From Escherichia phage JES2013, in the sequence record KC690136: DNA of 64,000 nt. The stretch is one strand, 5' to 3'. The position numbers were made by a program, and so were the translations under genes. Of this stretch, positions 57,792 to 60,222 are shown one piece after another. The first letter of the stretch is position 1. Each line of letters begins with the position of its first letter. The notes under the pieces were generated by a model. It searched no databases, was not told where the DNA came from, and saw nothing but the letters and a program-made list of their open reading frames with translations.

Positions 57792-58916
57792 TTAGATAAA
57801 ACGCTTGAACATAGAAGGTGATGAGATTGATGGAATCACACAAGGAAGTGCTACCTCCTCTTTCTCCAGGAAATTAATCGCAGAAGCTACACAGTCGGCC
57901 CAGTCGTCTTTCCTGTTAAATGTTGATCTTTCCCCGTTGAATTTTTCAAGTTCAGTCAGAAATGCTTCCAGAGTATCAGGATGGAAACTGGATTTTACAA
58001 TCCTAACCATTCCTTGTTGGGCAAGATTGGCAAAAGGTGAGAACCTTGTCAGTTTAGATTTGTTGGAAGGCATTGGGTCTTCTTCAACCCTAAACCCTTC
58101 GGCGAGCAAGGATCTGGAGGATGTTAAGAACTCACTCTTACCTGCCTGACCGGGGTCCACAGAGAATACGATTATACAATCATCACCATCAAACTGCGCC
58201 TGTTTCCTGATGATCACATCTCGTTCACCAGCCTTTTTACAGAACTTGCCTTCCAGACCTGTGGAATACCTCCCGTCATCCACGTTCTCAGGACAATAAT
58301 CACCGGACAGGTAATAAAAGCCGTCGCTATCTTTACTTACCTTAACACTGGCGGTAAAGTCAGGAAATTTATTACCGGAAGTTCTCTCGGTTCCTGCCTT
58401 ATCCCATGCCCTGCAAGATACTGATCCAAGGGGTACTCTATCGGCATCACGAAGGAAAGATCTTTGAAAATAGTTTGCACCCTCAGGCTTTGCAAACCAG
58501 TTGCCATGAAGAAGCTGGGCTTTTTCAAGCTCGGGCAGACCTTCAAGAAAAGCAAGGTATTCTGGGTTGTCTCTCAAGCAGACAGGATTATCGAAGATTG
58601 TTGCGCCTATAAACGAGAATGACAACGGTCTTGGCTTGATCTCTACACCAAGTCCGTTAACCGTGGTGTATTTCTCTATCAACTCTTCCTTAGAGTCTCC
58701 CCAAATAAATTCACCGTCGCGTCGGATAAAATATCTTTTCTTACCGCATTTCTCCGGATCTGGATACCCTTCATCGTCCAACCACCATCTAACCAGTTTG
58801 GCAAGCATGTGTTCTGAATCTGGGTTACAGCTGATAACCATTCTTGATGGATACTTTGACTGAGATCGCAGACGAGACATCAGGTAGTCTATCTGTTCCC
58901 ATTCGAATTGTGTCGT
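57792..58916 (-). CDS. terL: terminase large subunit, exon 2 (nuclease domain and ATPase motif III)
   Basis: Tracked ORF 57792..58880 starts at an internal Met. The frame is open upstream to a TAA at 58917-58919 (TTQFEWEQIDYL), and the motif VISCNPD follows. The exact 3' splice site is not determined. Confidence 0.55.
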   Translation of the reverse strand, partial: TTQFEWEQIDYLMSRLRSQSKYPSRMVISCNPDSEHMLAKLVRWWLDDEGYPDPEKCGKKRYFIRRDGEFIWGDSKEELIEKYTTVNGLGVEIKPRPLSFSFIGATIFDNPVCLRDNPEYLAFLEGLPELEKAQLLHGNWFAKPEGANYFQRSFLRDADRVPLGSVSCRAWDKAGTERTSGNKFPDFTASVKVSKDSDGFYYLSGDYCPENVDDGRYSTGLEGKFCKKAGERDVIIRKQAQFDGDDCIIVFSVDPGQAGKSEFLTSSRSLLAEGFRVEEDPMPSNKSKLTRFSPFANLAQQGMVRIVKSSFHPDTLEAFLTELEKFNGERSTFNRKDDWADCVASAINFLEKEEVALPCVIPSISSPSMFKRFI

Positions 58917-59793
58917 TTATGTTCAGGCAAGGTCGCTAGTCTTGCCCCGCCATTTTCAGGCAGCTGCATGTCTCCATGCAGACCAGACTATATCTTATGA
59001 ATGTGTAAATACTCTGCCGCTCTAAGAATAGTTTCCTCATCTTCTTGGAAGAAACCTAAAGCTCTGTTGCATTTATCACAAAGCAACCCTCTTACAGCAC
59101 CAGTTTTATGGTCATGATCAACACAAAAGAAATCTCTGTACCCTTGCGTCCTATACTCATCGAGAGATATTCTACAAATGGCACACTTATGATCTTGATC
59201 TGAGAGTAGACGATAGTATTCATCTTTTGTTATGTGAAATTTCTTCTCAATCTGATAAAACTTTTCACACATCTTACACCTGTTCGTAACCAGATATACT
59301 TTACCATAGTCACGTTTTGTGTAAAAACTATCAGCGAGCATACTTTCATGACAAGATTTGCATTCAAAAAGTTCACCTTTCTTCAGCAAGTCTTGAATAA
59401 ATAATGCTGCGTCATCTCTCTTAACCATATTTTTGTTTTTACGAGATCCACCCTTCCTGTAGTACATATAGCATTCCTTGCATGTACCTGAGTATCCATC
59501 CTTGCTCTTAGATGATAAAAAGAAATCATCAATAGGTAGAACTCTTTGGCAATCCATACATTTTTTAGTATTACACATTCACCCTCCCGTTTCGAATCGC
59601 TTGATTCTACGTCTTTCGACTAGTCGTTGAACGTTCATCCTCTCGGATGCTTCGCTGCGGATTATCTAAACTAACACACTGTTACCATACCTTCGATCTC
59701 TCTTCGAAGCCTCTATCATGTTACCATGACAGGTTGGTGGTGTCAATAATAAAGATTTCCCCGCAATTAGGGAGGTTTTACGAGAGCTACAAA
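58885..59793 (-). mobile_element. group I intron with embedded homing endonuclease ORF, inserted in terL
   Basis: Minus-strand core elements: P-like AATTGCGGGGAAA (59756-59768), Q-like AATCCGCAGC (59654-59663), R-like GTTCAACGACTAGTC (59618-59632), S-like AAGACTAGCGACC (58931-58943). Boundaries are approximate. Confidence 0.7.
58988..59578 (-). CDS. homing endonuclease, endonuclease VII (HNH) family, intron-encoded
   Basis: 196 aa. Motif [24 protein letters not shown] matches the T4 endonuclease VII signature; several CxxC pairs. Lies between the R and S intron elements. Confidence 0.7.
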   Translation of the reverse strand: [196 protein letters not shown]

Positions 59794-60222
59794 TTAACCC
59801 TCATCGAAGCAAACCATGGTGTACTCAAGCCCTTGATGGTTAAGCTTATCTTGTACATACTCCATGTGGCAGTATTTTACAACAGCTCCCTTTTTGCTTC
59901 TATCCCACTTGCCAGTGTTCGGATCAAACCGTGGAAAAATGAACTTATGATCCTTCTCTCTGAACTTTGGCTTAATGTTTTCAGGCAGATCGCTATAAAT
60001 AGCTACTGCTTTAGGCCATAGTCCACCCTCACCTTCCAACTGTGGGGTTGTTCTTCGGAACATAACCACAGAGCTGTGGGGGTCATCAATAATTTTAAGT
60101 GGCATCAACTGCAAGAGAAACGACTTGCCAGACCCTGCGGCACCGCCGATTACCAAAATATCTGCATCGTTTTCGAGGATCATCTTCTGCTTTTCAGAAC
60201 ACGGTCCGTAAATCTTAGACAT
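59794..60222 (-). CDS. terL: terminase large subunit, exon 1 (ATPase N-terminal part)
   Basis: 142 aa. Walker A ILVIGGAAGSGKS, Walker B MVCFDEG, then an in-frame stop inside the intron. Confidence 0.65.
   Translation of the reverse strand: MSKIYGPCSEKQKMILENDADILVIGGAAGSGKSFLLQLMPLKIIDDPHSSVVMFRRTTPQLEGEGGLWPKAVAIYSDLPENIKPKFREKDHKFIFPRFDPNTGKWDRSKKGAVVKYCHMEYVQDKLNHQGLEYTMVCFDEG

Follow-up and report, generated by a model that had tools for sequence, protein, structure and literature searches.

We analyzed a 64,000-nucleotide stretch of Escherichia phage JES2013 (KC690136; the window hereafter), in which the gene for the terminase large subunit (TerL) is interrupted on the minus strand. Three open reading frames (ORFs) lie at this locus, of 142 amino acids (60222..59794), 196 amino acids (59578..58988) and 362 amino acids (58880..57792). 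Judged by their sequences, the two outer ORFs are halves of one T4-type TerL, and the middle ORF has the signature of an endonuclease VII (Endo VII). It is very probable that TerL is here a single gene split by a mobile group I intron with an Endo VII-type homing endonuclease, a reading in which splicing and cleavage are deduced from sequence. The original prediction for this DNA read the region in the same way and is supported: its interval, 58885..60222, spans exon 1 and the intron and reaches 29 nt into exon 2, and its errors are limited to one ribozyme element (S) and the start of exon 2. The 2.6 kb at 57700-60300 of this strand match E. coli O157 typing phage 4 (KP869102) at 100% identity and show 95-99% identity to about 115 further rV5-like phages of the genus Vequintavirus.

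TerL exons and the splice junction

The first ORF (59794..60222) can be seen to stop just past Walker B, as had been noticed before, ending in MVCFDEG, and the first bases of the intron, UAA, are the in-frame stop for exon 1. The Pfam family Terminase_6N is split over the exons, with profile positions 2-104 in exon 1 and 117-211 in exon 2, and Terminase_6C follows the Terminase_6N part in exon 2. Both halves match 'terminase large subunit' in PHROG (4.6e-76 for the first half, 2.4e-146 for the second, PHROG 979). Together they carry an N-terminal ATPase with Walker A and Walker B and a C-terminal RNaseH-like nuclease, which form one 515-aa polypeptide in relatives. A PDB sequence search with the spliced TerL detected no relative, so the naming of the ATPase motifs rests on Pfam and on sequence motifs.

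When 59797 is joined to 58913, the predicted protein has 515 aa and is exactly the TerL deposited on 67 contigs, for DrSchubert and for intron-less phages, and a 400-nt junction built in silico is contiguous in many relatives. In a multiple alignment of alleles without the intron, with the ORF-less intron and with the ORF-containing intron, the insert falls exactly between GAGGGT and ACACAA. The predicted spliced junction reads ...GATGAGGGT|ACACAATTC... and encodes ...FDEGTQFEWEQ.... The alignment with intron-less homologs thus fixes both splice sites to the base, and splicing would yield the uninterrupted 515-aa TerL that these phages have, not two independent terminase polypeptides. A junction shifted by one base (GG|G ACA) would give the same protein but breaks both the rule of a U as the last exon base, U(-1), and the omega-G rule, and was rejected; GGU|ACA is the sole junction meeting both. 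Because of this placement, exon 2 starts at 58913 and not at the ATG at 58880, which also has no Shine-Dalgarno sequence in the stretch before it (gatagactacctgATG). A start at that ATG would lose 11 conserved residues (TQFEWEQIDYL) found in every intron-less TerL. The TerL frame does resume downstream with VISCNPD in it, as had been claimed, and only the point of restart has to be corrected, to 58913 rather than VISCNPD or ATG 58880. Exon 2 is uninterrupted from 58913 to 57792, with no second intron here.

The same two halves could be read as a split terminase, in which nothing is spliced and the 142-aa product assembles post-translationally with a C-terminal fragment made from ATG 58880. Each of the two fragments is an open ORF that begins with ATG, several GenBank records list the two TerL pieces as separate proteins, and a model exists in Aeh1 NrdA, split by mobE, which is cited in a study where one intron-associated HNH insert of phage CB7 did not splice in reverse transcription PCR (RT-PCR) (PMC7344957). 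We nevertheless hold a split terminase to be highly improbable: the insert is complete as a group I ribozyme, its splice sites being of the canonical U.G and omega-G kind, TerL would be broken within the ATPase fold, three residues past the Walker B Asp, and the fragment starting at ATG 58880 would combine the missing Shine-Dalgarno sequence with the loss of the 11 conserved residues.

The predicted group I ribozyme

With permissive filters, the Rfam model RF00028 matches the minus strand at 59806..58964 over its full length (1-253), with E = 2.2e-10 in the local stretch and 1.1e-8 in the whole 64-kb sequence, values far from those expected by chance, which favour the group I intron that had been proposed. 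Near-identical ORF-less alleles of the same intron (319 nt) score 84.9 bits in rV5 and 84.0 bits in RudolfGeigy (RF00028, E ~1e-20), the gathering score of the family being 50 bits. The unconstrained minimum free energy fold of the ORF-trimmed intron reaches -118.4 kcal/mol (z = -6.1 versus shuffles) and recovers all nested helices, that is P1, P3, P4, P5 with its extension, P6a, P7.2, P8, P9, P9.1 and P9.2; P7 is absent from this nested fold because it crosses P3. The 3' 80 nt of the intron (P7'-P9.2) have about 83% identity to the T4 td intron, and there are similar matches to this end in introns of phiKZ-like, Felix O1-like and other phages.

The features that define the splice sites and the subgroup are in place. 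P1 contains the U.G wobble of a 5' splice site at GAGGGU|UA, with U59797 opposite the G of its guide, and at the 3' end the omega-G is G58914, whose excision with the rest of the intron restores the TerL reading frame. P7 forms a pseudoknot helix with 5/5 Watson-Crick pairs that crosses P3 and is placed identically by Rfam, and it is predicted to bind G. P7.1 and P7.2 lie between the 5' strand of P7 and the 3' strand of P3, as in a td-like IA intron, and P2 is absent; extra P7.1/P7.2 hairpins between P7 and P3' are reportedly what Michel and Westhof used in 1990 as the criterion for subgroup IA.

Four core elements had been named from the letters of the sequence. Rfam and the helix map identify the P-like element (59768..59756) as the 5' strand of P4, the Q-like element (59663..59654) as its 3' strand, and the R-like element (59632..59618) as J6/7 and the 5' strand of P7. 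The order R, ORF, S is also correct, but the string taken for S, AAGACTAGCGACC at 58943..58931, covers the L9.2 loop together with the last part of the 5' strand of P9.2. We rejected AAGACUAGCGACC as the S element, since it belongs to the P9.2 hairpin and could pair with the 5' strand of P7 over about 3 bp only; the true S element is AAGATATAGTC (58996..58986). In its RNA form, AAGAUAUAGUC, this element has a single exact copy in the 64 kb, is conserved in the ORF-less alleles and is aligned to P7' by Rfam.

We compared the helices among 8 alleles that are 95-100% identical and have 16 variable core columns. One compensatory pair was found, a C-G to U-A change in P5a of rV5. Two changes preserve wobble pairing: P5a of DrSchubert has G-C in place of G.U, and U-A becomes U.G in P8, which is at the same time a synonymous change in a Leu codon. 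Two tetraloop substitutions in relatives preserve GNRA. A single mismatch, U-A to U-U in P5a, occurs in the A147 record, which is marked UNVERIFIED. P8 is also exchanged as a whole helix, with UAAGCG-AUUGUUGU-CGCUUA in ORF-less alleles and GAAUGUGUAA-ORF-UUACACAUUC in the ORF-containing form.

An endonuclease ORF inside an essential gene would also be seen with an intein or with a ribozyme-less, free-standing homing endonuclease gene, and a group II intron is a further class of insert to consider. The chance that any of these is correct is negligible, and we rejected them on the Rfam results, the allele alignment and the score of the ORF-less allele. An intein is excluded because the insert opens with an in-frame stop and its ORF does not continue the TerL frame. 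Apart from RF00028, Rfam families scored no better than E = 3.5 within the insert. A free-standing endonuclease gene is excluded because the ORF-less 319-nt allele still interrupts TerL and scores 84.9 bits, so that the ribozyme is independent of the ORF.

The P5 extension also contains a sigma-70-like site at 59746..59718 of the minus strand (TTGACA-17-TAACAT, with an upstream TG, 10/12), about 140 nt 5' of the endonuclease start. We dropped an internal promoter as evidence, because the promoter-like sites of the region are not above shuffles and this one is also present in the ORF-less alleles of rV5 and RudolfGeigy.

Table 1. Features of the TerL locus and its surroundings, by position in the window
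Feature	Position	Strand	Description
TerL exon 1	59797..60222	(-)	142 codons; Walker A GGAAGSGKS, Walker B MVCFDE, end ...DEG (ORF list, Pfam, PHROG)
Group I intron	58914..59796	(-)	883 nt; td-like IA-type with P7.1/P7.2, no P2; starts UAAUUU, ends ...AUAAACG
TerL exon 2	57792..58913	(-)	373 codons + stop; starts TQFEWEQIDYLMSRLRS (TQFEWEQ...); VISCNPD, RNaseH-like nuclease domain (translation, Pfam)
Predicted homing endonuclease gene	58988..59578	(-)	196 aa; two N-terminal CxxC...CxxC modules, C-terminal Endo VII (DHHRN) His-Me domain
S element (J8/7 + P7 3' strand)	58996..58986	(-)	AAGAUAUAGUC (DNA AAGATATAGTC); contains ORF UAG stop 58990..58988
P1	59802-59795 / 59789-59782	(-)	exon GAGGGU + intron UA with UAGCUCUC; U59797.G = 5' splice site (helix map, Rfam, minimum free energy fold)
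P3	59775-59770 / 59588-59583	(-)	CCUCCC / GGGAGG
P4	59765-59760 / 59661-59656	(-)	UGCGGG / UCCGCA
P5	59756-59753 / 59667-59664	(-)	
P5a	59732-59725 / 59720-59713	(-)	GUAA loop
P5b	59709-59704 / 59696-59691	(-)	
P6	59655-59654 / 59632-59631	(-)	
P6a	59649-59645 / 59640-59636	(-)	GAGA loop
P7	59625-59621 / 58990-58986	(-)	GACUA / UAGUC
P7.1	59620-59618 / 59613-59611	(-)	GUC-GAAA-GAC
P7.2	59607-59603 / 59598-59594	(-)	GAAUC-AAGC-GAUUC
P8	59580-59571 / 59008-58999	(-)	GAAUGUGUAA / UUACACAUUC, 10/10 Watson-Crick; 562-nt loop holds most of ORF
P9	58981-58975 / 58970-58964	(-)	GAGA loop
P9.1	58961-58959 / 58951-58949	(-)	
P9.2	58946-58941 / 58931-58926	(-)	L9.2 loop 58940..58932
Intrinsic terminator-like hairpin + T-run	57721..57742	(-)	directly after TerL stop
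tRNA Pro(tgg)	61326-61402	(-)	
tRNA Met(cat)	61414-61488	(-)	
tRNA Thr(tgt)	61490-61565	(-)	
tRNA Arg(tct)	61788-61862	(-)	

The endonuclease ORF and the allelic states of the intron

The endonuclease VII signature that had been seen in the 196-aa ORF corresponds to the Pfam family PF02945 (Endonuclease_7), which matches residues 110-192 of 196 with E 2e-21 and 76.1 bits against a cut-off of 23.6, and the ORF also matches endonuclease VII in PHROG. The closest solved relatives are Hpy99I (3fc3; E 1e-5, residues 57-192) and T4 Endo VII (1e7d; E 6e-4). All catalytic residues, D, H, H, R and N, are present in a conserved DH-x-H...R...CxxCN motif. The catalytic residues of T4 Endo VII are D40, H41, H43, R54 and N62 (PMC6083498). 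The RGLLC..CN half of the motif aligns with T4 Endo VII, and the whole motif, including DH(D/N)H, aligns with Hpy99I; the proposed equivalence of DHDH with T4 D40/H41/H43 rests on the shared motif and on the Hpy99I alignment. The C-terminal position of the nuclease domain places the protein in the 'endonuclease clade' and not in the 'resolvase clade', where the domain is N-terminal, by the criterion of PMC6083498. Its two N-terminal CxxC modules resemble zinc ribbons, and the PHROG search shows hits to Lar-like and HNH N-terminal regions. At 95% identity or more, the ORF is found in exactly 28 records database-wide, always once and always at this TerL site.

The reading signals of the ORF are embedded in the ribozyme core. 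The Shine-Dalgarno sequence GGAGG, 4 nt upstream of the AUG, is the 3' strand of P3 (59583..59588), the AUG lies in the 5' strand of P8, and the last seven codons and the UAG run through P8', J8/7 and P7'. Because the start and stop signals are shared with P3', P8 and P7', ribozyme folding and endonuclease translation would be mutually exclusive on one RNA, and in this structural model the two probably compete for the same RNA molecule.

To describe the population, we drew a spread from 118 junction-matching records, giving 59 informative rows, of which 34 are intron-less, 11 have an ORF-less intron of about 319 nt and 14 have the 883-nt form. The alleles were taken from GenBank phages, as a pattern scan of IMG/VR for intron-less junction variants returned 2 loci. 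Three allelic states thus occur within one genus, among genomes that are about 98% identical, and the ORF-less form of this particular intron is carried by rV5, RudolfGeigy and A147. The state of the site is reflected in the flanking exon bases. The last codon of exon 1 is GGT in 8/8 intron-bearing alleles and GGC or GGA in 8/8 intron-less ones, so that U(-1) is found in 8/8 and 0/8, respectively, and exon 2 starts mostly with ACA CAA in intron-bearing and with ACG CAG in intron-less alleles (intron-less TerL at the site, FV3 or AlexBoehm allele: ...TTCGATGAGGGCACGCAGTTCGAATGG...). This codon pattern fits the need for U(-1), and would also fit co-conversion or target-site immunity.

These data bear on the possibility that the ribozyme still splices while the endonuclease has lost its homing activity, having become degenerate or having taken on a maturase-like or recombination role, with the intron inherited vertically. 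Cleavage by the protein is a deduction from its sequence, the ORF-less intron persists in rV5, RudolfGeigy and A147, which makes the ORF dispensable for intron maintenance, and the 90% cluster of the ORF holds shorter calls of 159, 189 and 193 aa. Set against this, the ORF is intact in 5/5 alleles, where its variable codons show 16 synonymous versus 5 non-synonymous changes, the nuclease domain has 0 non-synonymous changes, and every DHHRN residue is present. The patchy intron states among nearly identical genomes, together with flanking synonymous changes that track the intron, fit ongoing mobility. We therefore regard an inactive endonuclease as unlikely.

Outside the genus, the closest full-length relative of the ORF (40.6% identity) is in OK283618, 'LPML1' (Ounavirinae), a Felix O1-like phage whose whole TerL/intron region is annotated as hypothetical proteins. 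Its TerL, at 745-3166, is split by a group I intron at about 1314-2100 that scores 57 bits with RF00028, above gathering, and an Endo VII-type ORF (1498-2043) lies in the P8 loop and ends at J8/7-P7'. The rule-conforming junction, YWD|EFTHF..., falls between the Walker B Asp and Glu; the peptide joined there matches the intron-less TerL of Hafnia phage Zyzzx contiguously at 79/79 residues, which confirms the junction. The insertion is thus two codons upstream of the DEG|TQ site of Vequintavirus, and in a different subfamily. Judging by these sequences, introns and endonucleases of this type seem to have targeted the Walker B coding region of this TerL family repeatedly.

Other observations concern further records of this TerL. 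A second TerL intron site lies further 3' in Vequintavirus: an intron with an HNH ORF of about 228-231 aa is present there in HdK5 (2211-3203) and in rV5, where the HNH ORF is at 1761-2456 of the retrieved TerL-locus sequence, and RudolfGeigy has an ORF-less intron at its second site (1127-1319+) with 59.8 bits. The intron-less TerL of V18 (NC_041937) is annotated as two coding sequences. In its junction region (381-412), 9 nt are duplicated in tandem (GGTTTGCTT) and GAGGGC is short of one G, a net gain of 8 bases that shifts the frame; we rejected these bases as an intron scar, since a duplication plus a 1-nt deletion is most likely a sequence or assembly error. The 18 MG0656xx 'Campylobacter phage' records (e.g. 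MG065644 A147, UNVERIFIED) are Vequintaviruses about 98% identical to the E. coli phages here, and the 79-aa TerL junction peptide of 'Listeria phage LPML1' has its match in a Hafnia phage; on these sequence grounds, the host labels of both look doubtful.

Around TerL, the hairpin after its stop (Table 1) has an equivalent in rV5 that is annotated as a Rho-independent terminator. Directly on the 5' side are a 95-aa ORF (60509..60222, minus strand) with a lipobox-like N-terminus and a 132-aa ORF (60904..60506, minus strand), which correspond to genes that BASEL relatives have annotated as o-spanin and i-spanin; the stop of the o-spanin ORF and the ATG of TerL overlap (ATGA at 60222). A tRNA cluster (61326..61862, minus strand) lies upstream of this lysis/terminase block, and a mechanically called ORF at 61010..61369, which overlaps tRNA-Pro, is probably spurious.

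Proposed mechanism and comparison with known systems

In the mechanism that we propose, the TerL pre-mRNA would fold into a td-like ribozyme (P1 and P3-P9.2, with P7.1/P7.2), exogenous guanosine would attack after U59797 at the U.G pair of P1, and the freed 3'-OH of exon 1 would then attack after the omega-G, 58914, to join GGU|ACA. Splicing would restore the 515-aa TerL and make Walker B (MVCFDE) contiguous with the downstream ATPase motif. Because the intron separates these two motifs, a functional terminase, and with it packaging, would need splicing. In a co-infection, the endonuclease, in turn, would cut the intron-less TerL of a relative near GAGGGC|ACGCAG. Homing would follow, as repair templated by the intron-bearing TerL would carry the intron and a few flanking exon bases into the recipient.

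Several points weigh against a mobile, self-splicing intron at this site. We infer the splicing chemistry, the target and activity of the endonuclease, homing and translational gating, and a search of the literature found no splicing or cleavage experiment for this element. The RF00028 match scores 46.5 bits with permissive filters, 3.5 below gathering, and a default Rfam scan of the whole 64 kb at gathering returned 4 tRNAs only and missed the intron. This shortfall is explained by the P8 loop, whose 562 nt contain most of the ORF, as the ORF-less alleles exceed gathering. P10 is weak, with at most 3 bp (ACA/UGU) by hand inspection. Covariation is thin: the variation among alleles supports the helices, with which it is consistent, but is too shallow for statistics. 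The annotation of the identical KP869102 lists two 'terminase-like' proteins and a 'recombination endonuclease VII', and the intron is unannotated.

For phages PhiPA3 and PhiKZ, competition through an intron endonuclease, PhiPA3 gp210, has been shown (Birkholz et al. 2024, PMC11620839). By analogy, we raise as a tentative possibility that the endonuclease is a weapon in competition among co-infecting Vequintaviruses, perhaps also Felix O1-like phages, and that its synthesis may be gated by ribozyme folding. If this is true, cutting the TerL of intron-less rivals would block their packaging while converting them. The series of intron-less, ORF-less and ORF-containing alleles at one site is a possible model for the cycle of homing-endonuclease gain and loss and for intron-mediated phage competition. 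The main value of the split-gene reading is, in our view, the repair of annotation, with one spliced TerL and an intron homing endonuclease in place of mis-split entries in many sister records. TerL is a standard marker for phylogeny and packaging strategy, and mis-split TerL genes distort such analyses.

The intron itself is already annotated and published for rV5-like coliphages; it is an ordinary mobile group I intron and nothing conceptually new. The TerL introns of rV5 were described by Kropinski et al. 2013 (PMC3606486), with Shub's help in defining the intron location, and in the rV5 record (DQ832317) TerL is annotated as a three-piece join, 'ORF64ABC'. In the BASEL collection, intron boundaries were annotated through comparative genomics (PMC8594841), and DrSchubert (MZ501060) has a two-piece TerL join with a 'putative homing endonuclease' inside. 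DrSchubert, HeinrichReichert, MaxBurger and WalterGehring carry the same intron and ORF, 98-100% identical, with a joined TerL coding sequence and a 'putative homing endonuclease' annotated. rV5 resembles JES2013 in genus, gene and insertion site and differs in having the ORF-less 319-nt intron at this site and a second, HNH-containing intron further 3'. The nearest experiment found concerns CB7, a phage of the sister genus Certrevirus, whose TerL intron with an HNH gene proved by RT-PCR to be spliced (PMC7344957). Phage LL-H also has a group I intron interrupting TerL, in an unrelated host and phage family, and is likened here by description; it is the phage chosen in PMC8785237 to illustrate that intron regions may encode a homing endonuclease.

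Among endonucleases, Fang et al. 2018 (PMC6083498) defined the family of homing endonucleases with the Endo VII motif 'DHHRN', with F-CphI as type member, and in their 'endonuclease clade' the protein from Escherichia phage 2 JES-2013 is given as intron-encoded. The 90% cluster of the 196-aa ORF includes the JES2013 protein AGM12453.1. F-CphI and this ORF share the C-terminal Endo VII motif with conserved D, H, H, R and N. However, F-CphI is free-standing, lies beside an intron and has been shown to cleave, whereas the ORF in TerL is inside an intron and is known from sequence; it also differs from F-CphI in its two N-terminal zinc-ribbon modules and in that most of it can be aligned with the restriction enzyme Hpy99I.

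The T4 td intron belongs to group IA2 and encodes I-TevI, a GIY-YIG nuclease, whose ORF is in a P6 extension with its start region sequestered in RNA structure. The TerL intron and td share the ribozyme type, P7.1/P7.2, an essential host gene and an ORF in a peripheral loop with a sequestered start. Unlike td, the intron described here interrupts TerL, carries its ORF in P8, encodes an Endo VII/His-Me nuclease and has no P2.

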